A stretch of DNA of 64,000 bases from the IMG/VR virus record IMGVR_UViG_3300027970_000018; one strand, given 5' to 3'. Both the position numbers and the translations under genes were made by a program. Every line of letters starts with the position of its first letter. The stretch's first letter is position 1. Below, piece after piece: positions 1 through 49,568 of the stretch. The notes under the pieces were generated by a model, which was not told the DNA's origin, did not search any database, and saw only the letters and a program-made list of their open reading frames with translations. Source of the DNA: an uncultured virus (IMG/VR IMGVR_UViG_3300027970_000018) (taxonomy: Duplodnaviria > Heunggongvirae > Uroviricota > Caudoviricetes).

Positions 1-3000
1 TAAATCCTTCTAACTCTTGTATCCCATGTTGTAATTCATGTAGAAGGGCTGTCTTAAAATCAATTGGTGTGATAGTAACTCCCTTGCTTTCAGTCTTTAG
101 AGGTATTAGTATCTCTTTTTTAGAAATATTGAACCACATAACATTTGAAATCTTAGGTATTCTTACTTTCCACTCTCTAATTTCAGGATATGAATCTAAA
201 ATTTTACTTTCTAATACGTCCTCTAAATTGTGTAGCCCGAAAGAAGGCATCCCGTTTTTTAATGTTCCATCTGGTATCTCGTACCTCCATAGCCCATCTA
301 CCCCAATCTCCCACCCAGTTGCAAAGAATATTTGCTCTTTCGTGAATTGGTTTTTGCCTTTCACCTTTCTACTCATCTCTCTTGCTACTCTTAGATTATC
401 CATTCGGAAAGTCGCTTCTTCGATTGCATCTAAGTTTGTTGCACCTATTTCTCCAATGATTTGGAAAGAAGGTATTTCACCATCAAGTTGATTTCCTCTG
501 GGGTTAGCATTACCGCCTTTTTCACTCTGTGTAAATGTATTTCTGGACACTGTTTGCGTATCTCCTCCTCTTCCTTTATTTGCGTCTGACATTTCTCCCA
601 TCTGTCTAGCAAATCCTGTGTTATTTCCACCTATTTTATTTATAAGTTCAGATAATTTTATTTGGAAGCTATCTTGTATATCTTGCGTATCTGAAAAAAG
701 TAATTCCCTTTTCTCTTGCAAAGTTAGGGCTGCCCTATCTTCAACATTCCTAGCTTGTACTTCTCCTTGCATTGCTGTGTATCCCATATTAGATATTTCT
801 TGAGCCCTATCAGAAGTATCTGCTTTTATGAATAGCTCTAAGTACGTTAACGCAAGATTATTACTCGCTGTTGTGTTTTCTTTAGCTAGTTTTACTCTTC
901 TGATATTTTCCTCAGTAGTTTCATTCCAATCGATTTTTGCGAAAGAGGTTGCGGCTCTGATAAAAGCACCTGGAGAGCCTCCCCCAGAGAATCCCTCAAA
1001 CTCTTGCACTGCGTGAGAAATCTCGTGGATGATTGATCTTTTAAGCTCTCTTTCTGAAAATCTAAAAGTTCTTGCTCCGCTTCTAAACTCAACCCCTTCC
1101 CCTGCGGATGCAGTTTTATATCTTGGTGAGGATAGGTTAACAGAGATTGTTTTATCATTATAATTGAAACTCGCTCTAACGTCTTTGTTTTGCTCATCGG
1201 TTGTGAATTTTACTTTTAAATCTGGAAATACAGTTGTAACTTCTTGGTTATCTAGTACATCTGACAGTTGGTATGTGGTCTCTATTTCAAAAGTACTATT
1301 TATTATCTCACCATCTGGTATTTCATACACCCACTGACCATTTACTTCTTCCCAATTAGTTTCTCTTTTTATCTCTCTTGGAGATGCTCCGTCCATTGAC
1401 ATATCTAATGCCTTATCTAACATGTCTAATCTGTTGCCTCCAAACTGTTCGTCTAAAGCTGCTGCAGTTTTAATTCCAGCTATCTGCGCTTGTAGTACTC
1501 CTTTAGGTGCTACATTAAATTTATGATACTCTTTCCAGAATGTTGCTTCGTCTTGGAATAGGTCTTTTCTTTTTTGTAATATAGATTGAGCTTGTTTATC
1601 TCCTTTAGATGCTCTTATGTCTAATACTTGTTGGAATACATGTATTAGTTCATGGAGAGTTGTTGTGTTGTTTAGTTTAGTTGGATCGAGGTATATCGAA
1701 CCATTTTTTTCAAATCCGAGGATGTTTCCTTGTGGTGTTTGGAGGAATTGGATTTTCTCTTCTATCGTGATTGCATTTTCATCAAATACTACGTAGTTGA
1801 ACCCTTTATTACTATTATCTTGTAATGTTGTTGTACCAGTTTTATACCTTGTTCCACTTATACCTGTGGAAAGTAAGTAAAGTGATGCGTCTTTGCTACT
1901 ACCTAGTTTTTGAGACAATATTTTATACAACTCTCCACCTTTTTTTGTTAAATCTGAGTCTGTTAGGTTTAACTCCGTATACTCAGGTGACATTCTTATT
2001 TTATCTCTATTACTTTCACTTAAAGGTTCACCCCAGTCTAACCAAGTGTAATCATCTCCTTCTTTTTTACCTTTATTTAAAGTGGCGTTATATATAATAC
2101 CTTTAGCGTATTTTATGCTGTCCTTGACAGGGATTAAATCCTCTACTATTGCATTTGCATATTTCATTAAATTGTCAGTACCGCCTAAATCTTCCTTTAA
2201 TCTTTTTTGCACCCCCTCTTGTGAAAGATATTTTTTTAATGCAGGATTGTTTACAGTTTTCTCAAAATCTTCTAAAGATTTTATAGGGTTCTTCCACCCA
2301 CCAAATCTTACAATATATGAGTATGCAATCCTCTTATTTTCTCCATCTTTTTTCTTAAAAATAAAAGAATCTAAAGGCTCTCCATTAATACTCAACTCTT
2401 TCTTTGCTAATTTTGTTGCGTACCTTTTTGCTATGCTTGGAAGGTCCGTGAAATATAGTCCCCAACCAAACAATAAATTTCCTTCCCCAGTGCCTATCTT
2501 TTCCGTTGAAAATTTATCAAATAAGTAGGGAGAACCGTGTAAACTTTGCACCATAGCATTCAAACTCTCAAATCCCATCTCCTTTATCTTGTCTGCGAAT
2601 ACTTTGGAATCTGCAATTACGTTGATACCTTTTTGTTTTATAAATTCAATTAGGTTTTGCTCGAATTTTATGTCGGATTTTTGTAGGTTTTCTTCATCAA
2701 CAACTCTATTTTCACCTAGAAGTCCTAGCGAACCATTTTTTAAGTCGTTTATGTCCACATCAAATGCAGATTCAAATGTATCTGGAAATGTTGTCTTATC
2801 CTTCAATCTGAATTCTACAGATGTGGCTTCTCTCTCACCTATCGAATTTCTATAAAGGTTATCTACATAAGCTAAAAAGTCTGGCTTACCATAGTATTTA
2901 CCTAAGTCTTCCATCATACTCTCAAAATCAGGGTAGTCTTGTTGTCTTATGACACCATTTGTTCTTCTTAAATAGTATTTGATGATGGGTGCAACACCAT

Positions 3001-5743
3001 TCCCGACCTTTCTATTAATTCCTTTGTTTTGCAAAAGGTGTTGAAATTCGTGGTTGACGACTGATTCGATTGTTTTGGAAAGAAATATTCCGCTAATTTG
3101 TCTGGATTCCAGCCCTCCCCTAATATTCTCTCTTCCATACTCTCCTCCTCGCATAATTGTTTTGGCAAACTCTTTTGAGCCTGTAATCTCAATTCTAATC
3201 TTCTCTCCGTTCTCGCCCTGAGTGGCAACCCCGACAACATTATTCTTTTCTTTTTCATTGAAAGTTATTTCTAAATCAATATTATTTACATTTATTCTTT
3301 TACCAAGGTCTTTAGTATCGAAGATATCTGTCAGAGGAAAAGATATTTTTCCGTCTCTGAATAACTCTTGAGAGAACTCTTCTATTTCTTGAGGAGTGAA
3401 AGGTATCAGTGTGATATCATCAATCTCTCTTCTCCATAAATTTCCTTTTATTCTGAACCACTTTGTTTGAGCGTAAATTTCCTCTTTTGATTTTCCTTGC
3501 TTCTCTAGGTTAATTGCTAATCGTAAAGCTTTATCATCTCCTTTAGTTAACTTATTACCATCAGAAATTATTTGGAAATTCGCTTGTACTTTCTTTGCGT
3601 ACTCAATTGATTTTTGTTTTACTGCTTGCACGAATTTTGATAGCGAACCATTTTTTTGATTGCGTTGTTCGATGTCATCCGGAGTGAGTTGTGATAGAGC
3701 TGCCATATCCTGCTTCTTCATTTGCTCAACTTGCTCCTTCGTATAATTTTCAGTTTCAACTTCTGTCTGATAATATAAATTATCTGTACTAGGTCTCACT
3801 TTCACAAAAACGCTTGTCTGAGGATTTTCCCCAACTTTTTGATACAATGTATCACCTATTCTTACAAAGCTGTTTACAGTTCGTGGAATCGACATTAAAT
3901 TCCCCACAATATTCTTAACCCCACTATACTCCCCAACGGTTTCAGGAAAATTGATTACAGTCAATACATTCGTAGCATCTTGTTTAAATTCCTTTGCAAT
4001 GTACTTCTTACCAGTTGAATCTTTTTTCAAAGCCAAGTAATCCATTAACTCCTCGTAGAATTCAATATTTTTTAAATCAGAGATGTCATTTCCAATAGTA
4101 ATATCCCTATTGTTAATTGAAATTTTTGATAATGTGTTTCGATATACAGCAGAGTTTTTTAACTTCTCTTTTAAGATGTAATTATAGAAGTCTGAAATGA
4201 ATCCCGCTTTCAAATAATCTACATTCGTAACTACTCCCGCCAATGATTTCATGTCCTCGTTTATCTTACGAGTGTTGTCCATTGTTGGATGTCCGAATAT
4301 TACTTGATACAAAGATGCTCTTTCGTTGTAGAAATCTAATCCTGTTTTTCTTGAGTTGATAAATTTCTCAATATCTTTTAATGTGTTCTCTTTTTGGTTT
4401 ACGTCTTTTGTTAGGTTGAATCGCTCAGGTATTTCTACCAAACCATTTTTTACCTGCTGGTACACCGCTTCGTACAAATCCGTAAGGCTGTCCGTAGTGC
4501 GTATTTTGTGGTACAACCCGTCTCCAACTTTTATCAAACCGTGTTGCTCAAATAACTGTTGGTCGGATTTCTCTGAATGCATTCTTACAATAGTAAGTCC
4601 GTCCAATTCCTTTGGAAGTTTCTCTACTGATTTAGTTGCGGTCTTACCAAAAACCCCGTCATAAACATCACTAAATGCTTGGATATTTTGGTTCGTTGGG
4701 TTCTTAACCATATCATTCACCGCATTCAATACTCGAAGTATTGTGGGTTGATCCGTAGTCACTTCATTAAGTCCTACAATGTCAATATTTTTATCAGCAA
4801 GATCCGATTCAATTTCTTTGATAACTTCTGCAACATCTTCTTTACTTTCCTCCCAAATGTTCTCAGGAATATTCTCAATGTAAAGAATTTCCGCTTCAAT
4901 ATCTAATTGGTCGAAATCTGTTGAAATCGTATTTTTTATTAAAGAAAAAGTATCTGTAATGTCTGCCACCAACGTATTGTCTCGCTCTTCAACAACAGGT
5001 ATTTTTCGTATGTTTTTAAATCTGGAAATGAATTTTTCTGCAAAAGTCTCATCTTCATTGAATTTAGTTATTAAATCTGTATATGGTAATTCTTGAACCG
5101 CTTGTCTTATTTCTTGCTCCGATTGAGGATTTTCTACTGCAGCAATTACTTCTTGATAAACTGCTTCCATTGGGATTACCTCAGATGCACCAAAAATATT
5201 TCTTACAGATGGATTTCTGTACTCTGAACTTGGAGTAGAAGTTTCAATACTAAAGTCGTTGACTAGAGCATCTGCTTCCATTCGCATAATCAAATCACCG
5301 ATTCTTGCTAAGTTAATATTCTTTATGTCCTCAGATGTGAACAAACCAGAGTTTATTGCTTTTTCTGGATAAAAGTTTGGAATGTTTCCTTCGTAGAAAA
5401 TCTCTTTTAGTTTTGCCGCCATCTCTGATAACCTACCAACATTATGGTCCGCCATCATCTGCTTCACTTCAAATGTTTCAGAAGGAGTTAATGTACCAAT
5501 TAATTTCTTATTGGAGTTGTAGTATTGAATAACCGATTCTAAACTAACATCGTCAACTGTACCTTTCTTTCCAATACTTTCTACAAAGTCTGGAGTACTT
5601 GCAACAGCCCACATTTCTAAAGCGTCTTTCTCGTTTTTAGTATACGCAAGTGCTTGTTGATACAATGAAGAAGGAAATCCATTTTCATTCGTCACTAATA
5701 AGGTTCCATCGGCTTTTCTGCCTATTCTACATTTTAATCCCAT
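1..5743 (-). CDS. Giant polyvalent cargo/ejection protein, partial (>1914 aa, runs off the left edge): 3x LPD23-like + zincin modules, an extra HExxH, ART-PolyVal-like domain
   Basis: Not in ORF track, consistent with no stop inside the window. ATG at 5743-5741 overlaps the upstream TAA (TAATG). Manual translation starts MGLKCRIGRKADGTLLVTNENGFPSSLYQQAL. In-frame HEFQH (3038-3052), HELIH (~1637-1655), HEISH (1013-1027), HELQH (26-40); HGSPYLFDKF..GTGEG..FGWGLYFT (~2445-2539) ... NYVVFD (1781-1798). Confidence 0.88.
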   Translation of the reverse strand, partial: MGLKCRIGRKADGTLLVTNENGFPSSLYQQALAYTKNEKDALEMWAVASTPDFVESIGKKGTVDDVSLESVIQYYNSNKKLIGTLTPSETFEVKQMMADHNVGRLSEMAAKLKEIFYEGNIPNFYPEKAINSGLFTSEDIKNINLARIGDLIMRMEADALVNDFSIETSTPSSEYRNPSVRNIFGASEVIPMEAVYQEVIAAVENPQSEQEIRQAVQELPYTDLITKFNEDETFAEKFISRFKNIRKIPVVEERDNTLVADITDTFSLIKNTISTDFDQLDIEAEILYIENIPENIWEESKEDVAEVIKEIESDLADKNIDIVGLNEVTTDQPTILRVLNAVNDMVKNPTNQNIQAFSDVYDGVFGKTATKSVEKLPKELDGLTIVRMHSEKSDQQLFEQHGLIKVGDGLYHKIRTTDSLTDLYEAVYQQVKNGLVEIPERFNLTKDVNQKENTLKDIEKFINSRKTGLDFYNERASLYQVIFGHPTMDNTRKINEDMKSLAGVVTNVDYLKAGFISDFYNYILKEKLKNSAVYRNTLSKISINNRDITIGNDISDLKNIEFYEELMDYLALKKDSTGKKYIAKEFKQDATNVLTVINFPETVGEYSGVKNIVGNLMSIPRTVNSFVRIGDTLYQKVGENPQTSVFVKVRPSTDNLYYQTEVETENYTKEQVEQMKKQDMAALSQLTPDDIEQRNQKNGSLSKFVQAVKQKSIEYAKKVQANFQIISDGNKLTKGDDKALRLAINLEKQGKSKEEIYAQTKWFRIKGNLWRREIDDITLIPFTPQEIEEFSQELFRDGKISFPLTDIFDTKDLGKRINVNNIDLEITFNEKEKNNVVGVATQGENGEKIRIEITGSKEFAKTIMRGGEYGRENIRGGLESRQISGIFLSKTIESVVNHEFQHLLQNKGINRKVGNGVAPIIKYYLRRTNGVIRQQDYPDFESMMEDLGKYYGKPDFLAYVDNLYRNSIGEREATSVEFRLKDKTTFPDTFESAFDVDINDLKNGSLGLLGENRVVDEENLQKSDIKFEQNLIEFIKQKGINVIADSKVFADKIKEMGFESLNAMVQSLHGSPYLFDKFSTEKIGTGEGNLLFGWGLYFTDLPSIAKRYATKLAKKELSINGEPLDSFIFKKKDGENKRIAYSYIVRFGGWKNPIKSLEDFEKTVNNPALKKYLSQEGVQKRLKEDLGGTDNLMKYANAIVEDLIPVKDSIKYAKGIIYNATLNKGKKEGDDYTWLDWGEPLSESNRDKIRMSPEYTELNLTDSDLTKKGGELYKILSQKLGSSKDASLYLLSTGISGTRYKTGTTTLQDNSNKGFNYVVFDENAITIEEKIQFLQTPQGNILGFEKNGSIYLDPTKLNNTTTLHELIHVFQQVLDIRASKGDKQAQSILQKRKDLFQDEATFWKEYHKFNVAPKGVLQAQIAGIKTAAALDEQFGGNRLDMLDKALDMSMDGASPREIKRETNWEEVNGQWVYEIPDGEIINSTFEIETTYQLSDVLDNQEVTTVFPDLKVKFTTDEQNKDVRASFNYNDKTISVNLSSPRYKTASAGEGVEFRSGARTFRFSERELKRSIIHEISHAVQEFEGFSGGGSPGAFIRAATSFAKIDWNETTEENIRRVKLAKENTTASNNLALTYLELFIKADTSDRAQEISNMGYTAMQGEVQARNVEDRAALTLQEKRELLFSDTQDIQDSFQIKLSELINKIGGNNTGFARQMGEMSDANKGRGGDTQTVSRNTFTQSEKGGNANPRGNQLDGEIPSFQIIGEIGATNLDAIEEATFRMDNLRVAREMSRKVKGKNQFTKEQIFFATGWEIGVDGLWRYEIPDGTLKNGMPSFGLHNLEDVLESKILDSYPEIREWKVRIPKISNVMWFNISKKEILIPLKTESKGVTITPIDFKTALLHELQHGIQELEGF

Positions 5744-8700
5744 TATGTGTTACAGTTTTTATCAGTCTCCTCTTGAGCAGCTGTATTGATTGAATCGTCT
5801 TTTGCTTTTTTGTATTTGTTCACCACTGGACTTTTTGATTCTTTTACCGCTTTCTCTTCTTGTTCATCTGTGTATTCAGTGTCCTCATCCGTTGTTTCTA
5901 CTTTGAAATCTTTCAACATATTTTTCATGTCCATTTCAACTTTTGGTGAATGGAATGGAGAAGAAGTGTTGAGATTTATCTGAGCTTGTTGTTTAAGAAG
6001 TTCTGCGATAGATGTCTTACCTCCTGTCCATTCATTGAGTGGATAAAAGTAATCAAAATCCTCTAACTGTTTCATTTTCTTGTCAAAAAACTCTTGAGTC
6101 AAATTGTTTTTTGAACCAATTGAATAGAAAAATTCTCCAGGTTGTTTTATGTCTACTCCTCGTTGTGCGAGCATTTGGTTTAATCGAACCACTTTATCCG
6201 CCACATCTGTATCAGAATTGAAAATTAATTCAAACTCTTTGTTGTCTCTTTTCTCTTGTGGAAGTAGTCTAACTGGGTAAGCAATAAGTTTTTCACCGAC
6301 TTTAAATACAACAAATGGTTCCTTCTTTTTATTAGGTTTTCCGTTGGTCTTGAACGTACTGTCTTTACTCATAAAAGTGGTGTCCAAACCTGTCGTTCCA
6401 TTCTTAGTTTTATAACCACCACTTGTTCTGATTCCAATATCAAAAACACCTGCTGCCATTTGATCCGTAAACTGAGTATATTGAATAGTAACATTTCCAT
6501 TCTCGTCTTTTGCTGAGAAATTGAAATTAGGTTGTCCGGGAAGAATTTTTGCCACCGTTAACGTACCATGATTTACTACGTGTAATGCTGGTGTTTTGTC
6601 CATCAATTTGTCGAACATTGTTTTATCATTCACAATTGAATCTCTGAACTGCTCAAATTTTTGATCCTCTCCGCTTGCTGCATCATTGTCTTGTTTTCCT
6701 CTGAGAGTGTGAGTATAAATTCCCTCTTTACCTCCAGTTGTAGTTTTTGGAGAAGCTGTGATTCTAAGGTTTTTTCTTAGGTTTTCTTTGGCTGTTTTCT
6801 TAGCAGCTTTGCCTTTAGCGTCTTTATATTCTTGGATTAATTTCTGATTGTACTCATCTCTAGTGTCGACTTTCAAAATAATCTCATCTCCAGCTTGCAT
6901 ATCATAGATTGCTTGGGTATCTTGAGTTTGATTATACTCTCCAGGAAATACACTTTTAAGTGGGAAACTTTCCATCTCACCAGTGATACCTTTTCTATGT
7001 CCAATTACAACACTATAATTTGTTCTTAGGTTTTCATTTGTTGGACGAACTGAAATTAAAGAAGTGGGCGAGTTTACTTTTGCAAGATTCTCTCCGTTCT
7101 CTCCTAAAGGGATTATAATGTTTCCAAACTCATTAAAGCTATATTCAAAATCAATCGATACTTTGTTTCCATCAGCATCAAGTTCTACAAATACTTGTCT
7201 AACAATTTCATCATCAGCCTTGATACCATTTATTTCTAACGTATTGTTTTTACCATTTGCTATAACAGTTACAGCATCTTGAGTAAGTCCATATCTTGTG
7301 TTATAGTTTCTACCTTTAGTAGAGAATTTAATTGTTTCCAAATCATCTTCATCCGTTCTTTGTTGGATAACTTCTGGAGACATTATTTTTGCATTTTCCA
7401 ATGCCACTTTTTGGCGGATTAAATCCGAAAGGTTTATTCCCTCTGTTATAACTCCTCCTACAAGTAGCCACTGGTCGATGTCATTTTTTAATGTGTCGTA
7501 CTCCTTTTGCTCTGCATCAGTAAGTCCTTCTGTTTGTTGTTTTTTAACCAACTCATTAAAACGAATATAATCCTCAGATTCAACTATTCGGATACCTTGA
7601 TTAGCATCTTTAAGTTCTTGTTCAACTCGTTGGATTTCAGCGTCTAATTCTTCTTTTGTTAGCCTTGTTTTTTCATTTGTATGCTCTTCAAGTGAGGCAA
7701 TATCTTGCGTTAATTGGTCAACAACTTCTTGACTTCTACCTAAAGACTTTTCCTCTTCTTCTAGGTCTCGCTTCATTTGAGCTAAAGCTTGCTCTTGTAT
7801 GGAGTTGTAAGTAGGTTGGTTCAGTGCTTCTAATTCTGCGTTAACAAAATCATAAAGATTTTGTGGCTGAGTTTTTATAAGATGATTAATCCATTTAGCT
7901 TTAGTTAATACAGGTTTAACTAAAGCATTTCCAGTTTTTATTAGTTTTAATATTTCATGTTGCTTACCATCTTTAGTTACTACAAAATATGTAGAACCTT
8001 TATCATTAGAAACAACATCACTATATGGCAATCCAATCTTATCTAGTTCTGACTTTATTTGTGAAACTACTTCTTCAGAAGTTTGTTCCATCTTACCAGA
8101 TGCATCTGTTGTTACATTCATAGATACAGGTTGTTTTTCTATTTCCTGCATTCTATTTTTAACTGTTTGTGCATCAGCTTTCTTAGCATCTATATTAGAA
8201 GTAGTTTGAGTAGAAGTAGGTGTTGTAGGAGTTGGCTCCTTGAAATTACCTCTTTGGTTTTTTAATTCTGCAAGTTGGGCTTCTAGTTCTTGGACTTTGG
8301 AAGTATCACGTACAGTATTTTGGATTGCATCTATTTGAGACGTGATTGTTTGTATTGCTTCGTTTATTACTTGTAAGCTTGTTTTCTCATCTACTTGTAG
8401 GTTTAATGCTGTACGTAATTGTATGCTATCTCCTTCTAGTATATTCGATGTTGGTTTCTCTTGTACTGCTTCTACTGTTTGAGCTATATCTGTTAGAGAG
8501 TTTGTTACTTGTTGTGCTAGTATTCCTTGGAGTTGGATACGAACCATTTGTTCGATGCGGTATTTTTCCCTATCTGAGAGGTCTGGATTTTTTTCCAGTG
8601 CATCTTTGATATAATCTGCAGCAACTTCATACGAACCTATACTTAAAAAGCGAAGTGCTTTGTCAATAATCTCATCATTCTTTTTCAACTCATCATAGAA

Positions 8701-11385
8701 TGCCGGATCCATTGAATATGGTTTGCCAAAAACTTTCGCTAATAAACCTCTACCCTCTTCTCCATTGAAGAAGTTAGTGTCTGTCATTCTACGGTGCATA
8801 TTCATAAACTCTCTGTGAGCGTTTGCGTATGCTTTGTATTCTATTAATGAAGATTTTAATGCTGCCGCTTCTTGAGTTCTTCCTTGGTTTTCTAAATCAT
8901 TGATGTATGCATCTAATTTGTCAAGTTGGTCGATTGCATCTTTTGTAGTTGATACTCGTAATGTACTTAATATATCTGTTTCTGAAACTCCTGCTAAATC
9001 CTTTTTAACGTCTTTACCGATTTTTATTGATTCATCTAACTCAGTCTTCTTTTTCTCTAATTCAGCCATTCTTTGAGTAGCTGCTAAATACTTACGTTGA
9101 AGTTCTTGAGATTTAGCCTTTGCTTTTGGATTGTCAGATGCAGTTTTATTTTCAGCTATTTGAGTTTGAATTTGAGTAATAGTGTCAAAAAGTTTATCTC
9201 TTTCCTTAGTAACTTTTTTAAGTTCACCAGTTGCTTTTTTCTTTTCTTTCGATAATCCATCATAGAATTCCACTGCGCTATACAAACCATTTATACCTGT
9301 GGTTTCTTCAATTGAACGCCCGATAGCCTGTGCGTTTTTCTGAGCTTGTTTTCCGATAACAATGTTTCTTATCATTGCCTCTTTCAAGTTCATCAAATTT
9401 CCATCAGTAATTCCGTTTGGAACACGTAGTGCTTCCACTACTGCTTTCGCTTGTAAGTAGTCTCTTGAAGTTTGAGCAAACTCGTTAATCATAGACTGCT
9501 TGTACTGCTCAACAGTCAATCCATTTTTTTGTAACTGCTCTTGCTCCTCTTTACTGATTTGCATTTCATCAACAACCATCTCAAAATCCTCTTGAATTTC
9601 ACTTTGAGTTTTAATATGCTCTTGGCTTTGAATGAATGATATATTTACATTCAAATTATCATAAGCCGGTGCAGTATTGTTATTTCTGCTTGCAGATGCG
9701 GAAGATGCTTTAGTCATTGCTCGAAGTAGTGTAACTCCTTTTGGTGCGGAAACATCTCCAAATGTTTTACGTAAATTTTCTAATCCCTCATTTGCCGTAG
9801 CCAAATCGGATTCCATTGCTTTTCTTGTAGATGTATAGCTGTTTTTACCAAATCCTGAAAAAGCTGTTCCGCTTTTAATTGCACCTGGTTGTATGCCGCC
9901 TCCAGCTAAACCGATAATCATACCAATTCCAATCTCTTTCCAACCTTCTTTTGAACCGTACTGTTCTGAAAATGCATCTGTTAATGAGGACCACATAGAC
10001 TCTGAATGAGAGTTGTCTAAGTCATAAAGTGACTCCATAGATTTCTGCATAGCCTTTCCAGCTACTCCTTGTAGTCCTTCCTCGAATATACCTTCTATTG
10101 CTGGCTTCTCTAAAATCTTGTAGGTAGTTCCTGCAATTCTTTGAAACCTATTTGCTTTTTGTAAAACTCGTGTTCCATCGTCAAGAGTTGTAACTCCAAG
10201 TCCGATTGCTTTATTGAAGAAGTTTGTTACACCTTTTCTAGCATCTGGTAAAATGTTTATGTCAAATGTTTTTCCAAACATTGCAGCATTTGAGACAGAT
10301 AGGATAGCCATGTTAGCTGCGTAAACAGTGTTGGCTCCATTCTTTGCACTTGTCATAAATTTTGATAACTCCTCGTATGTTGGTTGTCTTCCGTTTATAT
10401 CTTCAAAGGAATTCATGTAGTTATCAACAGATTCTTTGAAGTTGTGCCTAGCTTCCATTCCTGCCTCGAAGTTAGATGTGCGAACCAAGAATGCTCCTGT
10501 ATCAAGTACACCTCCAATTCGACTTCCGAAAACAGCTTTGCTCATCCCACGTAGAATACTTCTACCTTGTGAGTAACCAACTACATCATCAGCTTTTGAT
10601 AACATTTTACCAACTTTCGATGACCCTAACCAAGTAGCCTTTGCTGTCTTCTGTAAGGAGGTTTCAGCCAACTCTTTCGTAACAGCTTTCGATACGCTTT
10701 TTAAACCTAGTTTTGCAAAAGAACCTGCGGCAGAACCTCCTCCTGTTAAAGCTGCAATAGCAACTTCTGGAAGTATTGCTCCCCCAACAAAAGCTAACCC
10801 CCCTGCTACATCATTAAACCAAAAATTAGTTGTAAGAGCACTTTGAAAAATATTGTTGGACTTCTCCTCGTCTGAGTAATAGTTTGGAAGTTTATAGTCA
10901 AGCCGTTTGTTGATGTCGTCCATATTTCTTGAGAACTCGTTGTCCCAAACAGCACTAAAACTTCCTTTGTTTAGTCCATTATAAATACCATATACTGTAC
11001 CAACAGTGCTGTCAAGAACATAGTTTACGATCTTAGATGCGTTCTTAGTTACTCCATAAAAAGCTTTCTCAACAAAACCTTGTTGGTTTGCCAATCTATT
11101 TTCATTACCTTCTGCACCTAAGTAGTTTTCAAACTTTGCTACATACGAACCATCGTTTAGACGCTCGAATACAGAATCGATTGGTACATTATACTCTGCT
11201 GTATTTATTCCTTGGCTTGTTACAGGATTCCAGTCTAATTTTGGAATTGCACTTGGAGCTAATTTTGGACGTATCGGTCCTATTTGCTTATCCGTTTTAG
11301 CTGTATGTTTAAGTACCTCATCTACACTTTTAAAATCCTTAGCGGTTTTTATTGTAGGAGGTGGAGTTGGGTTTTGCTCTATCAT
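5743..11385 (-). CDS. Giant virion cargo/ejection protein (1880 aa), crAss-like
   Basis: Long ORF downstream of the muzzle gene; Gly/Ala-rich hydrophobic segments (AGGLAFVGGAILPEVAIAALTGGG; IGIGMIIGLAGGG), EGIFEEGLQG motif, coiled-coil stretches. Confidence 0.75.
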   Translation of the reverse strand: MIEQNPTPPPTIKTAKDFKSVDEVLKHTAKTDKQIGPIRPKLAPSAIPKLDWNPVTSQGINTAEYNVPIDSVFERLNDGSYVAKFENYLGAEGNENRLANQQGFVEKAFYGVTKNASKIVNYVLDSTVGTVYGIYNGLNKGSFSAVWDNEFSRNMDDINKRLDYKLPNYYSDEEKSNNIFQSALTTNFWFNDVAGGLAFVGGAILPEVAIAALTGGGSAAGSFAKLGLKSVSKAVTKELAETSLQKTAKATWLGSSKVGKMLSKADDVVGYSQGRSILRGMSKAVFGSRIGGVLDTGAFLVRTSNFEAGMEARHNFKESVDNYMNSFEDINGRQPTYEELSKFMTSAKNGANTVYAANMAILSVSNAAMFGKTFDINILPDARKGVTNFFNKAIGLGVTTLDDGTRVLQKANRFQRIAGTTYKILEKPAIEGIFEEGLQGVAGKAMQKSMESLYDLDNSHSESMWSSLTDAFSEQYGSKEGWKEIGIGMIIGLAGGGIQPGAIKSGTAFSGFGKNSYTSTRKAMESDLATANEGLENLRKTFGDVSAPKGVTLLRAMTKASSASASRNNNTAPAYDNLNVNISFIQSQEHIKTQSEIQEDFEMVVDEMQISKEEQEQLQKNGLTVEQYKQSMINEFAQTSRDYLQAKAVVEALRVPNGITDGNLMNLKEAMIRNIVIGKQAQKNAQAIGRSIEETTGINGLYSAVEFYDGLSKEKKKATGELKKVTKERDKLFDTITQIQTQIAENKTASDNPKAKAKSQELQRKYLAATQRMAELEKKKTELDESIKIGKDVKKDLAGVSETDILSTLRVSTTKDAIDQLDKLDAYINDLENQGRTQEAAALKSSLIEYKAYANAHREFMNMHRRMTDTNFFNGEEGRGLLAKVFGKPYSMDPAFYDELKKNDEIIDKALRFLSIGSYEVAADYIKDALEKNPDLSDREKYRIEQMVRIQLQGILAQQVTNSLTDIAQTVEAVQEKPTSNILEGDSIQLRTALNLQVDEKTSLQVINEAIQTITSQIDAIQNTVRDTSKVQELEAQLAELKNQRGNFKEPTPTTPTSTQTTSNIDAKKADAQTVKNRMQEIEKQPVSMNVTTDASGKMEQTSEEVVSQIKSELDKIGLPYSDVVSNDKGSTYFVVTKDGKQHEILKLIKTGNALVKPVLTKAKWINHLIKTQPQNLYDFVNAELEALNQPTYNSIQEQALAQMKRDLEEEEKSLGRSQEVVDQLTQDIASLEEHTNEKTRLTKEELDAEIQRVEQELKDANQGIRIVESEDYIRFNELVKKQQTEGLTDAEQKEYDTLKNDIDQWLLVGGVITEGINLSDLIRQKVALENAKIMSPEVIQQRTDEDDLETIKFSTKGRNYNTRYGLTQDAVTVIANGKNNTLEINGIKADDEIVRQVFVELDADGNKVSIDFEYSFNEFGNIIIPLGENGENLAKVNSPTSLISVRPTNENLRTNYSVVIGHRKGITGEMESFPLKSVFPGEYNQTQDTQAIYDMQAGDEIILKVDTRDEYNQKLIQEYKDAKGKAAKKTAKENLRKNLRITASPKTTTGGKEGIYTHTLRGKQDNDAASGEDQKFEQFRDSIVNDKTMFDKLMDKTPALHVVNHGTLTVAKILPGQPNFNFSAKDENGNVTIQYTQFTDQMAAGVFDIGIRTSGGYKTKNGTTGLDTTFMSKDSTFKTNGKPNKKKEPFVVFKVGEKLIAYPVRLLPQEKRDNKEFELIFNSDTDVADKVVRLNQMLAQRGVDIKQPGEFFYSIGSKNNLTQEFFDKKMKQLEDFDYFYPLNEWTGGKTSIAELLKQQAQINLNTSSPFHSPKVEMDMKNMLKDFKVETTDEDTEYTDEQEEKAVKESKSPVVNKYKKAKDDSINTAAQEETDKNCNT

Positions 11386-14498: not shown

Positions 14499-14537
14499 CT
14501 ACAGTGTGTTATGTTATCGAACCATTTTATAATTTTT

Positions 14538-33180: not shown

Positions 33181-33859
33181 TTGTCAGTGATTTTAGCATT
33201 TCAAGCATCTCTGGTTGTGGGTGAATATCTGTTTTATCTTTTCGGTAGCTGTTGTGGGTGTACAAACCATTTTTACCTGTAAGCGCTTCGTTGTTTACGG
33301 TGAAAAGTTTTTCGTAGTTGTACGTCAAATCTATTTTGTAGATTTCTCCCCAGTAAACAAGTAACTGTCTTACAGATTCGATTTGAGCTGTGGTATACTT
33401 GTGGAAATACTTTTTGCCCTTAAATGGTTCAGCAACCTCGTACACATCTTCCGCAGGAACTTCTTTGTCCACGTAGTTAAAGAATTTATCTCCAACTTTA
33501 TCAACTGCTCCCCAATTGCAAATCTCAATTCCAATCGATAATGCATCTAAGTTTTTCCAAGGAAGTTTTCTTGCACGGAACACTTCTTGCTTCACTCCTA
33601 AATGGTATGCCCAAGCTTTGGAAGAAAATGCTTGAACAATTTCTCCGTTAAATGTTCCTTTTGCTCCTTTACCTGATATTGTGATACATGTAGCAATTCT
33701 ACCACGCTTATCTGAGTTCCAATCATTTACAGTTGCTATTCCAGACGCATTTCCAGCTGTGTGGTGTAATACGATTTGAGTTTTTGGAATCGCCTCTGAA
33801 TAAAATTCAGTCGCTTTAAGTGGTACTTGTTTGATCAATTTTAAGTCTAGGTTTTTCAT
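33173..33859 (-). CDS. Endolysin, N-acetylmuramoyl-L-alanine amidase (Amidase_2 type)
   Basis: IVLHHTAG, WAYHLG, SIGIEICNWG, TH...KTD zinc-ligand motifs. Confidence 0.85.
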   Translation of the reverse strand: MKNLDLKLIKQVPLKATEFYSEAIPKTQIVLHHTAGNASGIATVNDWNSDKRGRIATCITISGKGAKGTFNGEIVQAFSSKAWAYHLGVKQEVFRARKLPWKNLDALSIGIEICNWGAVDKVGDKFFNYVDKEVPAEDVYEVAEPFKGKKYFHKYTTAQIESVRQLLVYWGEIYKIDLTYNYEKLFTVNNEALTGKNGLYTHNSYRKDKTDIHPQPEMLEMLKSLTNG

Positions 33860-37348: not shown

Positions 37349-38014
37349 TTAAATCGTGAAAAGCCTATCTTTAGTTAACTGATACCCGTTGGCATCAGAA
37401 TTTATTGCCGAGAATTCTTTTGACATAGCTAGTAAAATTCTGTTTACCACTTTATCATCAAACTCTGGGTCGATATCTGCTGACAATGTGTTGTCTAATT
37501 TTGGGTAGCCCGCAATGTCGACTTGTCTTGGATATCTGTAATAAGTTAAAAGTACTTTACTATACTCAAAACCTTTTTTGTATAACACCACTGAATTGTT
37601 AGAGAAGTGGTAAAATGACTCTCTGTATTCAAATGATGGTTGAGTATTGGTGTCAGCCAATTTCTCTTCGACATCTTCGCTCTTTGTTTCAAACAACAGT
37701 ATGTTATTTGCTTCACAACAGTCTGTCGTTACAGATGCTGTTATGTTTGAAAAATCAAAGTAGTTTGTAGGTAGTGCATAAGTTGTGTGCGTTTCTTCCA
37801 AACCATTTTGTACTAGCGGTGTGTCCTTTACCAATACAGTTTGTACATCTCGTATAGAGTCTTCATTTCTTTTGTCTAAACTCCATTCTAAGTACTTATT
37901 CTGCATATTATTAAAAAGCATGACAAAGCGAGGTTTATCCACGTTAGTTCTGTTGTTGGTAGCATTTCTGTTTACCAAATTTAAAAACTCTATATATGTC
38001 TCTTGAATTGTCAT
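37349..38014 (-). CDS. Ring / head-tail adaptor protein (crAss gene 74-like)
   Basis: Synteny; PSFEYRES and LTYYRYPRQVDIAGY motifs. Confidence 0.65.
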   Translation of the reverse strand: MTIQETYIEFLNLVNRNATNNRTNVDKPRFVMLFNNMQNKYLEWSLDKRNEDSIRDVQTVLVKDTPLVQNGLEETHTTYALPTNYFDFSNITASVTTDCCEANNILLFETKSEDVEEKLADTNTQPSFEYRESFYHFSNNSVVLYKKGFEYSKVLLTYYRYPRQVDIAGYPKLDNTLSADIDPEFDDKVVNRILLAMSKEFSAINSDANGYQLTKDRLFTI

Positions 38015-38996: not shown

Positions 38997-39026
38997 TTTA
39001 TTTTGTTTTTCGGTATTTTTAGTTTT

Positions 39027-39057: not shown

Positions 39058-39070
39058 GTATTTTGGTTTG

Positions 39071-40780
39071 TTATCGTTGTAACTCGATTGTTACTTGACG
39101 AGATACATCCAACACTAAACAAGCACTGCTTGAGTGTGCCCAGAATGTACGACCCATCGTTTTCAAACTTGATTGTACGTAACTTGCATTACCATCGTTA
39201 GCCATACGACCTTGCTCGTAACCAAATGTTACGTGAGCTCCTTCTGGCTTGATGTAGTAAATGTTTGAGTTCACTGTTCCACCTTCTACAAGTGTAGCGT
39301 TCTTAACAGATTTAGCTACGTTGCTATAAGCTGGGCTTGATGCATCACGAATGATTGCACTGTGCGAAGTCCAAGCGTAACCATTGTCACCGTAGAATCC
39401 TCTTGTCAACTTATCAGCCAATGGTTGGTAGTCTAAAGTATCATCTAAAGTAGCTTTGATTTTTCCAATTCCAGGTATTTTAACTGAACGGAAACGAACT
39501 GCGTCCATATCCAATGCACCTAAACTTCCTGATAAAGGAGACTCGATACGAGTTGTTGTTCCAAGTAATCCAGCCAAACCATTTAATTGTTGTGTTGTCT
39601 CTTCACGGAACAAGTGCTCGATTTCTGCGTGCATTCTAGATCCTACGTCCAAGCCTAATTCTCTTTCGTGAACTGGCATGTCAGAATTTTTGAATACATA
39701 AGAAGCTGCATTGTGTAAGTGGTCTAAAGTTAAACCTCCTTCTTTTGCATAGCGGATAATTTTTCCTCTACGGTACTGATGCCAAGCTCCTTCGTTAATC
39801 ATTTTTGTACCACCGTTACCTGTACGGAATACACCAGCTTTAGCCATAACCAATGCTTGTGCTTCCATTTGAGCTAACTCAGCTAACACGAAATATTCAA
39901 CAGCTGGACCAACTCTTAAATTAGCGGTATTTGTTGGGTCAAAACCTGGTTTACCTGACTGTGCGTCTTTAACGATTTTAGTCATAAAGTACATGTCTTT
40001 GTTGTCTCCGATCATGTTCTCTAATTGGCGCATTGCTTTCTCTTTAGTAGCATCTGTAACAGATTTCAAACCTGGAGCTTTCATTCTTGCAGCTTTATCT
40101 GTGTAGAAAGTCTCCACTGAACGGTGGTCTCCTAAGATAAACTCACAAGTAATTGTTCCGATTGGGTTGTCAATCAAGTTGATACCAGAGTAGTTAACTC
40201 CAAGCTCAGGCATAATGTTAGTCACTTTCATGTAACTTGTGCCTGGTTTCAATTTTTCAGGTGGGAAGAATTTCTCTTTATCCAAAGAAGAAATTTGACA
40301 ATAATGTCTGAATCCGTCACCAACTGGCTCAACAGGGATGTCAGCTACGTGACACTGCTCACCAAATAGTGGATCATAAGTTAATACATCTCCTGGTTGG
40401 AATTCTTCTGAAAGAATCAATTCAAAGATTGTTTCACCTTGTCCTGGTCTTGCAGTTAATGTAGACGTATCCTCAGTTACTGTTGCACAGGCATTCTCCC
40501 TGTGTACAGGCAAATCATACGTAATTGATTCTGTTGGAGTCACCTCTAATACAGCTGACTTCTCGAACAAATTACGCATAAAAGTCATTGGTCTCTTGTG
40601 AGTTGTCGCAAACAAGTTAACCATACCTAAATGTTTCTTATGAGAATTCTCATCATTTAATAGGTATGCAGAAACTTTTGGTGCGTCAAACCACTTTAAG
40701 TCCTTCACCGATTTACTCGAAGTGAAGCCAACAACCATATCCCCATTGATTGAGGGGAACGTGCTAAATTGGTTATTCAT
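39071..40780 (-). CDS. Major capsid protein (569 aa)
   Basis: Position terminase-portal-acidic protein-MCP as in crAss-like phages; biased codon usage of a highly expressed gene; followed by a terminator. Confidence 0.75.
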   Translation of the reverse strand: MNNQFSTFPSINGDMVVGFTSSKSVKDLKWFDAPKVSAYLLNDENSHKKHLGMVNLFATTHKRPMTFMRNLFEKSAVLEVTPTESITYDLPVHRENACATVTEDTSTLTARPGQGETIFELILSEEFQPGDVLTYDPLFGEQCHVADIPVEPVGDGFRHYCQISSLDKEKFFPPEKLKPGTSYMKVTNIMPELGVNYSGINLIDNPIGTITCEFILGDHRSVETFYTDKAARMKAPGLKSVTDATKEKAMRQLENMIGDNKDMYFMTKIVKDAQSGKPGFDPTNTANLRVGPAVEYFVLAELAQMEAQALVMAKAGVFRTGNGGTKMINEGAWHQYRRGKIIRYAKEGGLTLDHLHNAASYVFKNSDMPVHERELGLDVGSRMHAEIEHLFREETTQQLNGLAGLLGTTTRIESPLSGSLGALDMDAVRFRSVKIPGIGKIKATLDDTLDYQPLADKLTRGFYGDNGYAWTSHSAIIRDASSPAYSNVAKSVKNATLVEGGTVNSNIYYIKPEGAHVTFGYEQGRMANDGNASYVQSSLKTMGRTFWAHSSSACLVLDVSRQVTIELQR

Positions 40781-40810
40781 TTTTTAATTTTTTAAAAAGT
40801 TAAAATCCTA

Positions 40811-41941: not shown

Positions 41942-42038
41942 ACAAAATTATTTTGATTATTATTGTGGTGCAATTTTATAGGTTATTTAGAATTTAACCT
42001 AAAAGTTTATAGGATTATACCTTATAAAGTCGGGAAAG

Positions 42039-44798
42039 TTAGTTTTTGTTAGCAAGTGCGATTCTTTCTTTTGATTCGTTTGTTTCACGTTTTAGTTTCA
42101 GTTCCTCTGTTTTTAGTTGTAGTTCCTGCATACGTAGTTGTAGGGTTGACAAACCATTTTGTTGGTCCGCTTTGAGCTTTTCTTTCTTAACTTCTAAGTC
42201 AGAGTCAATCTTATATTTCTCTAAAGCTTGTTTTGAAGTTTCATTAATATTTGTAAGGCTTTCTAAAGAAGTATCAGTTGTAGCTGCTCTACCTTCTGCT
42301 TGCATTTCTCCAACAGCTAATTTAACTTGGTTATTTTTATCAACGATTTGTACATCTCTTTGATGTGCTTTCTCTGCAAGTTGGTCTTTAAGTGCTGCAT
42401 CTTCTTGAAGAAGTTGTTTCTCATATTCAAATTTTTGTTGCTCTTGTTCTTGTCTTCTTTGATTAGCTTCAGTTGCAATTTCAATCAATTCTTGCATTGA
42501 GTCAGAAGAAATTAGTTTAGCAAGTGCTACGAAGTCATTCCCAACAGTGTTGTCATTGATGATTTTTTGTTTGAACAACTCCACTTCTTTTTTCTTTCTT
42601 GAATCTTTTGAGGGGATTAATCCTAGCTTTCTGAAAGGGAAGTTTGGATCACTCATTCTGAGATAAGCAATGCTCGCATCATCTTTTGTATAAACAAGTG
42701 TGTTATCTAATTTATTCGACTGTGCGTATTGAGCAACTGAAAGGTGTAATTCTAAAGCTCGTTTTTCGTAGTAATTGAATTCCTGGAAAATTTCAGCGAT
42801 TGCTGATGTACTTGCCTCCTGATTTAGCCTTACCCCTTCTGCAGTTTCGTATTTAGTTGGTTGTAATGCTTGCTGAGGATTTGTACCTACTGTTTCGTAA
42901 GCAAGTGCTTTGTACTTGTCTGCCAATCCTACTCTGTATTGAATTTGTCCAGCGTAAGTTAAATTATGTGTTGTAAATTGATTAAAGTTGTTTTGGTTCT
43001 TATCAGACTCTCCAGAGGTTTGTACTGGTAAAATCCCAATATCCTTTGCTAAGTTACGCATTTCAACCATTGCTTCCTGCGCATTTCCCCAGCCATTAAT
43101 TTCCGATGGAATAAGTGTAACATCTAATAGAAAGAAAATACCAATCTCTTTCTCAAGCAAGTTGTAAATTTGGTTCATTACCAAATTATATGCTGCTTGG
43201 TATGGCATTACTTTGTGTGCCCAAGGTTCTCCAATATATCCTGCTACTGGAATCTTAATATCAAACTCGCTATCTCCTTTGATTTGGTGGTCACATCTTT
43301 TGCAGTATAAATAAAGGTCTTCTTTTAAGTTTGAGCTTTTAATTTTTACTCCTTCGTAACACACTGGTTTAAGAACCCACTTGATTGTATTAAGTTCTCT
43401 TTTTTCTAACTCTCTTCCGTTACGGACTACATCTACAATACTTGATTTAAAATCTTGTTTGATTCCATTCTCTCTTAGGAATTCAGGCAAGATGTCTTCT
43501 GTTACTTCTTCTGTTACGATTAGTCCAGACTCTGTTTCATACGTTAATAGTCCCCAATATTCTTCTGCTATGAAGTATACTTCTGTCACTTGACATAGGT
43601 CATCTCTGTGTTTGAAATCACTCCTTAATATTGATGCATGTTGTGCATAATGGTCCATAGATACTTTACTTTGGTATCTTGGTAGGAATCTATCTCTTTT
43701 TTGTTGTGTACCATCTTTATCAAACCATATTGTTTCGCCCATCGGGGTTCCGAAATGATCTTGTATACCAAGTAGGTTGTTATAATCTGTTGCTCCATCG
43801 AAAGGGACCCACATTGGTTTATTGAAGTTGCTATTTAAGGCTTGTTCAATTGTTCCGGATACTTCTCCAGTTCCAATGAATGTTTTCCAGTCAGGATTTC
43901 CTCCTAATAAATCTTTTTGCTTGTCTGTGGTAATATATGCACCATGTTTACTGATTACCTCAGATGGGGTCATATAATGATACCTTCCAACGTAGCGGCA
44001 ATCTTGTGCGAAACGTGAGTCCACTTCTTTAGAGAAGAATGTATTTTTTGGGCTCCAAGTAATTGGTCTATAGTTGTCATAGCCAATTTTGTACTCTCGG
44101 AAGCATCTGCCTGTAAGTAGTTTATCTTTTAATTCTGTTTTTCCGAGATCATTTAATTCAAAAACTTCTCGGTCTCTCTCAAGTGTAGCTTCTCCCCACT
44201 TCATGCCGTTACTCTTGAATCCTTTCTTTGAAGATTGCAAAGTATCTTTTGGAGTAGCTTGTATTTTTGCTTGTTCGAGTTGTTGGATGTATTGCTGTTG
44301 CTCTTCTTGAGATGAGAACTGCTTTCCTTCTATTGTTAGGCCATGTTTTGCCAAAGCCATTTTAACTTCTTCCTCGCTAATACGCTCAAGCTCTTTTTGA
44401 ATTTGCTCGTTCTTATATCTTAGGAATTCGTTTGTTCCTATTTCACCTGTATCAGTGACGTGGAACTTGTCTTGCATATCTATGTACTTGGCTACGATGT
44501 CACGGACCAATCCTCCGATTAAGTCGTAGTGTTTTAAGAATGCTGGGACTCCTACACCGTCTAAAGCATCGGCTAACTTCTCCAAATGTGGCACAGCAGA
44601 TTTTAACTCCTGGTATGACATTTTTCCTTCAACCATTCTATAATAGTCGTGGAATTTGAGGTTCTCAATAAACTGTTCTCTACCAATATATTCAAAAGCA
44701 TCCATGACAGCTCTCTGCCATTTATCGGATTCTTTTACTGATTTCTTAACCCATAATGGAGGAAGTACATCAGTTTGGTTTATATTGTTAGGGTACAT
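42039..44798 (-). CDS. Portal protein (919 aa)
   Basis: crAss-like portal pattern (LP..W..K..K...W, LKHYDLIG, C.YVGR.HYMT.SEV, MPYQ.AYN.VMNQ), C-terminal coiled coil; downstream of terminase. Confidence 0.85.
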   Translation of the reverse strand: MYPNNINQTDVLPPLWVKKSVKESDKWQRAVMDAFEYIGREQFIENLKFHDYYRMVEGKMSYQELKSAVPHLEKLADALDGVGVPAFLKHYDLIGGLVRDIVAKYIDMQDKFHVTDTGEIGTNEFLRYKNEQIQKELERISEEEVKMALAKHGLTIEGKQFSSQEEQQQYIQQLEQAKIQATPKDTLQSSKKGFKSNGMKWGEATLERDREVFELNDLGKTELKDKLLTGRCFREYKIGYDNYRPITWSPKNTFFSKEVDSRFAQDCRYVGRYHYMTPSEVISKHGAYITTDKQKDLLGGNPDWKTFIGTGEVSGTIEQALNSNFNKPMWVPFDGATDYNNLLGIQDHFGTPMGETIWFDKDGTQQKRDRFLPRYQSKVSMDHYAQHASILRSDFKHRDDLCQVTEVYFIAEEYWGLLTYETESGLIVTEEVTEDILPEFLRENGIKQDFKSSIVDVVRNGRELEKRELNTIKWVLKPVCYEGVKIKSSNLKEDLYLYCKRCDHQIKGDSEFDIKIPVAGYIGEPWAHKVMPYQAAYNLVMNQIYNLLEKEIGIFFLLDVTLIPSEINGWGNAQEAMVEMRNLAKDIGILPVQTSGESDKNQNNFNQFTTHNLTYAGQIQYRVGLADKYKALAYETVGTNPQQALQPTKYETAEGVRLNQEASTSAIAEIFQEFNYYEKRALELHLSVAQYAQSNKLDNTLVYTKDDASIAYLRMSDPNFPFRKLGLIPSKDSRKKKEVELFKQKIINDNTVGNDFVALAKLISSDSMQELIEIATEANQRRQEQEQQKFEYEKQLLQEDAALKDQLAEKAHQRDVQIVDKNNQVKLAVGEMQAEGRAATTDTSLESLTNINETSKQALEKYKIDSDLEVKKEKLKADQQNGLSTLQLRMQELQLKTEELKLKRETNESKERIALANKN

Positions 44799-48905: not shown

Positions 48906-49568
48906 CTACTGCGTTTTTTGAACTTTAAATCTAACAGTAATCTCCTTGTTACCATATTGTACAAAAAGCTCTCTTGAAGTAGGTCTCTCAAGACTAAATC
49001 CTGCAGTGTTCAACCTTATCGAAAACTCTTTTCTTGCTTCGTCAATATCAATGTGAGTTGCAAAGGTACATCCACATGATACCCTTGCTCCAGTGAATGT
49101 GTATTTGGTTGGTACAAACAAACCAAATTTGAAGTTGATTATCTCCTGGTTTGTTGTTCCGAGATCTACGACAAATTTTGCTTCCTCGTAAGAAATTGGA
49201 TAATCGTGTCCGTCAACTGAAAATACGGATGCTCCGCTTGGTGCTTCTGCTTCTAGTGCCAACCACTTGGGTTCACGACCTAAATCTGTCAACCCACAAG
49301 CTGTTCTTTTTATAGAAGCTTTTAATTCAATACAACAATTACAAGCTGTACAGAAATTTCCACTTTTTCCAAATGTTGCTGTGTAACATTTTCCTTCGTG
49401 GATTGAGTGTCCCATCTTTCTTTTATGCTTGAGTACGTTTGCGGAGTTGTATTCACAAGCATTACATATTTCCACTCTTTCCTCGAACCATTTTTTACCT
49501 GTTGGGGTGTCGGTTGTTATCGCCTCGGCAATCATTTTTGCCTTATCTAATCCTTCCTTTAGTGACAT
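48906..49568 (-). CDS. Zn-binding Cys-rich protein with DUF1573-like C-terminal domain
   Basis: RVEICNACE..CTACNCCI..K..C N-terminus; SCGCT motif. Confidence 0.6.
   Translation of the reverse strand: MSLKEGLDKAKMIAEAITTDTPTGKKWFEERVEICNACEYNSANVLKHKRKMGHSIHEGKCYTATFGKSGNFCTACNCCIELKASIKRTACGLTDLGREPKWLALEAEAPSGASVFSVDGHDYPISYEEAKFVVDLGTTNQEIINFKFGLFVPTKYTFTGARVSCGCTFATHIDIDEARKEFSIRLNTAGFSLERPTSRELFVQYGNKEITVRFKVQKTQ

Follow-up and report, generated by a model that had tools for sequence, protein, structure and literature searches.

The stretch of DNA considered here, 64,000 nt of the uncultured virus record IMGVR_UViG_3300027970_000018 (the window), carries a dispersed ten-base word, which reads AAATGGTTYG on the coding strand of the virion genes and CRAACCATTT on the + strand of the window. 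The window corresponds to about half of a probable 126-kb genome: the capsid protein is recorded on a contig of 126,323 bases, and ~62 kb of the probable genome therefore lie outside the window. From position 1 to ~51.4 kb, ~36 open reading frames (ORFs) on the - strand form the late or virion-gene block (gene models are our own picks from the ORF list), whose products include the large terminase, the portal, a crAss tail ring protein, an amidase, a holin, giant tail or ejected proteins, a 2228-aa (amino acid) virion RNA-polymerase-like protein and a polyvalent protein with LPD23 and ART-PolyVal domains. The right block on the + strand encodes a RecA homologue with intein and HNH domain, a Holliday-junction resolvase and GroES/GroEL, and the GC skew changes its sign near 50 kb, coinciding with the polarity of the word. 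According to its large terminase, the phage has the Cellulophaga phages phi17:2 and phi4:1 as nearest named relatives, at 36% identity, and the label crAss-like, which had been applied in a preliminary description of this DNA, is roughly right only. The sequencing runs containing the phage sequence (X1-X10) are labelled lake water.

On the + strand, one version of the word, CGAACCATTT, is found ten times, and no copy of it lies on the - strand anywhere in the window. In 100 dinucleotide shuffles a mean of 0.17 copies and a maximum of 2 were obtained, and a third-order Markov model predicts 0.11 copies. The preliminary description had listed these ten exact copies, all on the + strand, together with near matches at 6185 and 18360 and the lack of any reverse-complement copy, and all of this is borne out. 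What it had overlooked is a sister word, CAAACCATTT, which becomes visible on allowing one mismatch and occurs ten times on the + strand and twice on the - strand, both of the latter copies belonging to the block beyond the strand switch, whose genes they again follow in sense direction. Its further remark that GAACCATTT always follows a C applies to all ten + strand copies, but not to three copies on the other strand, which follow G, T and A. Combined as AAATGGTTYG, the word amounts to 19 sense and no antisense copies between 1 and 51.4 kb, and to two sense copies and one antisense copy in the right block. Eighteen of the 19 late-block copies are located inside ORFs, with up to four in a single gene, and their mean spacing of 2.65 kb (coefficient of variation 0.71) is slightly more even than random. 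CGAACCATTT and CAAACCATTT are also the two top-scoring 10-mers of the window (scores 35 and 23), all other high-scoring words being parts of these two, and no longer dispersed repeat was found in the window beyond the 10-mer; a 15-base stretch, AAAAAATGGTTCGCT, is common to three copies.

Whether such a word simply follows from the encoded proteins can be judged from synonymous shuffles, in which codons are exchanged within each late gene, keeping the proteins and the codon usage per gene (300 shuffles per form). For the CG form AAATGGTTCG of the coding strand these gave a mean of 1.24 copies (maximum 4) and for the TG form AAATGGTTTG a mean of 1.23 (maximum 6), compared to nine observed copies of each, while permutation of the codon order gave only 0.06 and 0.10, respectively. 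A more direct measure is obtained by listing all permissible sites, that is, any peptide of the late proteins able to encode the word in any frame. Here, 18 of the 21 permissible coding sites carry the word (86% filled), as opposed to an expectation of 2.25 based on codon usage; in the frame starting at codon position 3 alone, 14 of 16 sites are realised vs 0.28 expected. None of the four antisense permissible sites of the late block is used, and in the right block two of three sense sites and one of two antisense sites are realised. The choice of codons is correspondingly uniform, as all six Asn-Gly-Ser tripeptides in the late proteins are written AAT-GGT-TCG after a codon ending in A, with TCG making up 7% of the Ser codons, and eight of eleven Asn-Gly-Leu tripeptides are written AAT-GGT-TTG. 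Ordinary codon or codon-pair usage is thereby excluded as the source of the 18 filled sites. The word had earlier been called frame-independent, which is wrong as stated: among the 18 coding copies, 14 start at codon position 3 (x-N-G-S/L), three are read as M-V-R/C and one as K-W-F, a bias that arises because 16 of the 21 permissible peptide sites fall in the same frame. The related claim that protein sequence fails to explain the word is upheld by the shuffles and by the filling of permissible sites as well as by the amino acid replacements described below.

All parts of the word appear to contribute. Single-base variants at positions 1 and 4-10 occur near expectation, with 0-1 sites each, and only those at positions 2 and 3 display a small excess (5 vs 0.81 and 3 vs 0.66). 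Since the variant classes stay near expectation, all ten positions are specified, corresponding to ~19 bits. Judged from these comparisons of sequence, AAATGGTTYG is best described as a selected, strand-specific recognition word that is placed at nearly every encodable position of the virion genes. Two other explanations at the level of translation or RNA shape were considered and rejected: an out-of-frame mini-ORF (ATG-GTT-YGN followed by a stop) would be closed within two codons in six of 21 copies, which is unremarkable by eye, and mimicry of a tRNA T-arm finds no complementary half-stem after the word.

The largest group of copies is located in the polyvalent virion protein (window 2-5743, - strand; full protein P0013, 2191 aa), where AAATGGTTCG encodes K-N-G-S at 1697..1706 (aa 1347), 2729..2738 (aa 1003) and 3644..3653 (aa 698), and AAATGGTTTG encodes K-N-G-L at 4439..4448 (aa 433). 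These and all further late-block copies are written on the - strand. The adjacent ORF 5743-11385 holds AAATGGTTCG at 8540..8549 in the Q-M-V-R frame and AAATGGTTTG at 9283..9292 as I-N-G-L, and ORF 11382-14498 holds AAATGGTTCG at 12858..12867, again as K-N-G-S. The copy of AAATGGTTCG at 14518..14527, 20-29 nt upstream of the start codon at 14498, had already been recognised as lying in non-coding DNA and is indeed the sole one to do so. ORF 14579-16702 follows with AAATGGTTTG at 16065..16074 in the K-M-V-C frame, and the giant RNA-polymerase-like protein carries AAATGGTTTG at 22156..22165 (T-N-G-L, aa 1091) and AAATGGTTCG at 23749..23758 (I-N-G-S, aa 560). Towards the strand switch, the word is encountered as AAATGGTTTG at 26121..26130 (K-N-G-L; ORF 25425-26318, crAss tail ring protein 1 family), as AAATGGTTCG at 29956..29965 (T-N-G-S; ORF 29746-31398) and 31912..31921 (K-M-V-R frame; ORF 31779-32330), as AAATGGTTTG at 33263..33272 (K-N-G-L; amidase ORF 33173-33859), 37799..37808 (Q-N-G-L; ORF 37349-38014), 39575..39584 (L-N-G-L; ORF 39071-40780) and 42150..42159 (Q-N-G-L; portal ORF 42039-44798), and finally as AAATGGTTCG at 49484..49493 (K-W-F-E frame; ORF 48906-49568). 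The three right-block copies are all AAATGGTTTG. The sense copy at 58416..58425 (+, K-W-F-V) is weak, given a word probability of 0.76 from the peptide alone, the second sense copy at 61263..61272 (+) encodes K-N-G-L in the GroES-like ORF, and the copy at 62824..62833 (-; CAAACCATTT on the + strand) in the GroEL-like ORF 61474-63078 is the only one antisense to its gene.

How these copies arose was addressed by alignment with homologues obtained from protein searches, which make the older state readable at five sites. In the polyvalent protein, the peptides at three of the sites are kept in close relatives, whose N-terminal 724 aa are conserved with 89-96% identity, while distant relatives (44-46% identity) differ at each of them. 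At aa 433, the clade has KNGL and the distant relatives REGA or QDGN; at aa 698, KNGS stands against KSGV, KAGM or KSGI; and at aa 1347, KNGS stands against YKGT or YQGT. The flanks of all three sites are invariant. The site at aa 1347 lies within the block ILGFE....IYLDP, just upstream of the HExxH motif, and comprises three amino acid replacements in a four-codon patch with unchanged flanks. In the RNA-polymerase-like protein, the peptide at aa 560 is specific to the clade of the window, IINGS being common to the relatives at 81% and 77% identity and replaced by NGT or A-S-T in those at 52-54%. The NGL at aa 1091, by comparison, is conserved across the family and is used by the word, and the one unrealised NGL of this protein, at aa 1161, is a novelty specific to the window. 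Altogether, amino acid replacements in the clade created a fitting peptide at four of the five sites with a readable older state, one of them placing Ser where all other sequences have a hydrophobic residue. Since these replacements fall inside conserved blocks, the word was created at a cost to the protein, and the copies are the outcome of strong directional selection, or of a drive, on the nucleotide sequence. The motif-compatible peptides are kept, at the peptide level, in relatives of 77-96% protein identity. With shuffles, saturation (18 of 21 sites) and replacements pointing the same way, the idea of a hidden, strand-polar cis signal acting at the nucleotide level, as put forward in the preliminary description, finds support.

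The polyvalent protein is also variable in its modular composition. Compared to three relatives, which are 89-96% identical over the first 724 aa, it contains an extra module from aa 725 to ~1021, and the location of the zincin-like (HExxH) module varies from relative to relative. Three motif copies are found 14-26 residues away from module junctions, which hints at recombination close to them, although the number of cases is too small for a test.

The word appears to be specific to its lineage. A scan of IMG/VR returned a single relative, a 65.6-kb fragment (G001) with 48% large-terminase identity, which contains no copy of the word; a megablast search of window positions 1-25000 against phages gave no match, a scan of a genome collection with the GroEL sequence as query found no relatives, and two metagenome scans with low-complexity peptide patterns confirmed none. 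The top words of phi17:2 and of the fragment were inspected as possible analogous signals and rejected, since they turned out to be tRNA T-arms and one tandem repeat inside a gene, respectively. With tandem repeat and tRNA block masked, no dispersed word above a score of ~12 was left in either of them, compared to 35 and 23 in the window. The repeat of the fragment (48235-48516 of L004) consists of 12- and 15-nt units in one gene, with 18 copies of AGCAGCACC, and is the source of the top k-mers there. Closer relatives, at ~90% nucleotide identity, are contained in the runs X12 and X13, as seen in a comparison of contigs of the runs X10-X13 with window positions 23001-43000 at 80% likeness, and two further contigs, of 88.8 kb and 61 kb, belong to relatives whose MCP is 92% and 78% identical, respectively. 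Breaks of the X10 contigs are not aligned with the motif copies, and one contig spans three of them; the 40 listed of the 2031 differences between relatives and window in this interval include none in its eight motif copies, which has no bearing on conservation. Among potential hosts, 406 Bacteroidota genomes (five Flavobacteriia and 401 further ones) revealed no enrichment of the word: they contain 0 to ~110 copies per genome, at most ~1 per 32 kb on both strands and ~1-2 times the count of a reversed-word control, as against one copy per 2.7 kb on one strand in the phage. Hence, the word is not a chromosome-wide word of the sampled Bacteroidota.

Among known signals, the closest parallels are found in phages with programmed single-strand interruptions. 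In Pseudomonas phage tf, according to an excerpt of the published study, nicks have been mapped to 14 sites of the sequence TACT/RTGMC, every one of them on the top strand (PMC3517423). When the permissible-site test was applied likewise to tf (motif TACTRTGMC), the motif was distributed 14 to 0 between the strands; 8 of 13 permissible sites were realised in the + strand genes vs 0.67 expected (62%), 2 of 8 in the - strand genes vs 0.14 expected, and none of 24 sites in the opposite orientation, with x-T-V-T as the dominant frame. Four of the tf sites (2099, 3491, 5264 and 20791 in L135) are situated at gene boundaries, three on start codons and one at the 3' end of a gene; at the three start codon sites, the RTG of TACT/RTGMC is the ATG or GTG start codon itself. 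In phage Rembedalsseter, as described in an excerpt of the respective report, WACTRTGAC occurs exactly 13 times on one strand, each time at a drop of native nanopore coverage on that strand, and is enriched in 60 related phages; the same excerpt calls the purpose of the nicks unknown, those of T5 having been known for ~50 years (PMC11780129). The word described here has in common with the motifs of tf, Rembedalsseter and LUZ24-like phages that it is short and asymmetric, contains one or two degenerate positions, is strand-exclusive, far above chance, intragenic and apparently clade-specific, and it shares with tf the saturation of permissible sites and one dominant frame. It differs in being an unrelated word in another phage lineage and another host phylum, in its copy number (at least 19 in 51 kb compared to 13-14) and in its saturation of 86%; furthermore, nicks are proven in tf and Rembedalsseter and hypothetical here. 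Convergent gene blocks do not alter which strand is nicked in tf; in the window, the right block offers two sense copies and one antisense copy for this comparison.

Other nick sites resemble the word less closely. The consensus sequences 5'-R/GCGCRGG-3' of T5/BF23 and 5'-CGACN5CCTA/CTCCGG-3' of phiKMV-like phages are stated in the excerpt on tf, as is the location of phiKMV-type nicks on the non-coding strand (PMC3517423). CRAACCATTT likewise lies on the non-coding strand of the late genes, but the T5/BF23 and phiKMV-like sites are few (4-5 major ones) and dissimilar in sequence, and the T5 heptamer is present also on the strand without nicks. Middle and late promoters of crAss-type phages, described for phi14:2 in an excerpt of a preprint as a host sigma-type tripartite motif with -35/-10-like elements upstream of genes and mostly intergenic (bioRxiv 10.1101/2020.03.07.982082), share with the word the orientation along the late genes; a promoter of this kind was rejected, as 18 of the 19 copies are intragenic. 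The literature searches made here brought up no account of such a word for crAss-like phages.

With these comparisons at hand, the best supported reading, which we favour tentatively, is that of a nick-type DNA recognition site: a clade-specific phage enzyme would recognise the duplex word and cut one strand, and one strand of the packaged DNA would be interrupted in a programmed manner roughly every 2.7 kb, similar to the situation in tf, Rembedalsseter, phiKMV-like phages and T5. Reading on DNA rather than on RNA, nicking, and the identity of the reading protein are what we infer. Among the options offered in the preliminary description (nick site, Chi/KOPS-like site, protein-binding site), nicking gains most because the proven tf nick motif has the same signature, while a host Chi-like word loses ground in view of ten specified positions and the 406 genomes. 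The apparent lineage specificity of the word is expected if nickase and sites evolve together, and in strand exclusivity, length and degeneracy the word resembles a nick motif. Several points weigh against this reading. It is built on assembled contigs, the form of all 20 sequencing runs listed, which display no molecule ends; no free-standing nuclease or candidate nickase was recognised among the 51 ORFs of the window, the only HNH domain being the one within the intein of the RecA-like gene; and the word bears no likeness to known nick consensus sequences. Its signature, moreover, is not unique to nick sites, as E. coli Chi exhibits a weaker version of it. The right block with its two sense copies and one antisense copy is too sparse to separate physical strand from direction of transcription, and the alternation of C and T at position 9 is what pairing with an RNA through G-C/G-U wobble would allow as well.

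This last point leads to an RNA signal, a possible but unlikely alternative, in which AAAUGGUUYG in the late mRNAs would be bound by a protein or paired with an RNA bearing CGAACCAUUU and would affect stability, processing or translation. All 19 late-block copies are sense, the intergenic one being located between co-directional genes, the sole degenerate position is C/U and could be paired by one G, and positions 2-3 tolerate G (four sense, no antisense) as G-U wobble allows; T, however, is tolerated equally, and sense orientation is confounded with strand and GC-skew polarity. In addition, no complementary word was found on the transcribed strand of the window outside the sites, an Rfam search of the window returned only a tRNA-like element, and we know of no phage precedent for a small-RNA or protein site repeated ~20 times inside ORFs. 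Somewhat less probable still is a polar guide or recombination word of the Chi, KOPS or SRS type, which a helicase-nuclease or translocase of host or phage would read in one direction, protecting or orienting the linear genome in recombination-dependent replication or packaging. The coincidence of polarity and GC-skew switch near 50 kb speaks for it, as do the RecA homologue and Holliday-junction resolvase of the phage. Chi, KOPS and SRS words are likewise over-represented, orientation-biased and located in genes, and for Chi (5'-GCTGGTGG-3') the same kind of codon-level excess was obtained in one 50-kb sample of E. coli, with 11 of 28 permissible sites realised vs 2.59 expected. This is a lower rate of 39%, however, distributed over both strands (13 to 5), and the known words of this type specify 5-8 bases rather than ten, are present on both strands and are enriched across the host chromosome. 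Across the 406 Bacteroidota genomes the present word stays within the low density given above, although it may still be a word specific to the phage's own host.

Replication could also be involved, if primase action or strand initiation on the lagging-strand template took place preferentially at the word and replication proceeded outward from the strand switch. With an origin at the GC-skew minimum near 50 kb, the word would lie on the lagging-template strand, its spacing is a little more even than random, and it ends in a GTT-containing sequence, GTT being used by the T4-type primase. Since known primase sites specify 3-5 bases and not ten, the origin position follows from the skew alone, and the window revealed no primase gene, we consider this improbable. 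The same holds, to a greater degree, for the absence of any function, with copies arising through codon-pair bias or through a drive, either mutational or by gene conversion in which short patches are transferred from one copy to another. The 15-base stretch common to three copies and the three replacements at aa 1347, which look like a patch introduced in one step, would fit such copying. Yet, codon or codon-pair usage cannot yield the observed filling of sites, the related fragment and phi17:2 are devoid of a comparable word, the copies are kept in relatives of 77-96% identity at least as peptide, and to our knowledge no such drive has been found in phages. The least probable explanation, to which we give hardly any credence, is mimicry of a host CRISPR repeat, by which the word would copy the repeat core and disturb the processing of CRISPR RNA (crRNA) or the discrimination between self and non-self. 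It originates from the single outlier among the 401 further genomes (G077), in which 143 copies compared to 29 were counted, the excess being due to a CRISPR array (L134 7889-14508, contig 30). This array comprises at least 101 repeats of 30 nt, GTTTCAATTCCAAAATGGTTCGATTAAAAG, separated by spacers of 34-37 nt, and runs off the contig; the repeat family is written GTTTCAATTCC...ATTAAAAG, its centre AAAATGGTTCG equals the phage word plus one A, and G+C contents are similar (36.7% vs 35.8%). Its terminal repeat is a variant, cas genes are missing from the sequenced side, and there is a 3' end ATTGAAAC, which presumably indicates the reading direction; together these suggest that the array is read from its far end, in which case CGAACCATTTT, the complement of the word in the phage mRNA, would be present on the crRNA strand. 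Nevertheless, only 11 of the 30 repeat bases are common, with no further likeness in the flanks of the phage sites, none of 100 spacers matches the window (best 16 of 35), known RNA anti-CRISPRs mimic whole repeats, and late genes are a poor place for counter-defence. With chance coincidence estimated at 1-5%, after many genomes had been examined, the likeness is recorded as a note and not as evidence. Finally, and with low but not negligible probability, a freshwater crAss-related clade may carry an undescribed, genome-wide 'written word' that is perhaps no nick site at all; an as yet unrecognised phage factor could read it as a new type of polar signal, perhaps on late RNA, or it could be linked to the identical core of the CRISPR repeat.

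Besides the three copies of the word, the right block displays several features of its own, all on the + strand. A hairpin with a TTCG loop and a T run behind it is present twice, at 52431-52484 and 52572-52625; the copies are 78% alike and probably serve as a pair of terminators between early genes. In a 640-nt non-coding gap, a tRNA-like element at 53709-53825 scores 36.2 bits against the Rfam tRNA model and receives no call from ARAGORN; it contains a 47-nt insertion in the variable region, and its anticodon loop is one base short as aligned. The RecA homologue (55687-57543) is split by the intein with its HNH endonuclease domain at residues ~130-348. The GroES-like protein (60886-61467) has an N-terminal extension of ~100 aa before its Cpn10 domain (residues 107-193), and its gene is followed by the GroEL-like gene.

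If the word marks nicks, the phenomenon extends to a crAss-related lineage of the Bacteroidota type and to a new recognition sequence. It would then also become apparent how strong the selection on such sites can be, as conserved amino acids are replaced and nearly every encodable site is used. An example of such overwriting is the change from Y-K/Q-G-T to K-N-G-S beside the HExxH motif of the ejected polyvalent protein. Given this strength of selection, the function should be of importance under natural conditions, despite the laboratory growth of T5 mutants that lack nicks. More generally, comparing permissible with realised sites separates selected DNA words from codon bias and recovered the proven motif of tf. 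Applied to uncultured phages, this test could find such signals and, via phyletic comparison, also the enzymes that read them.

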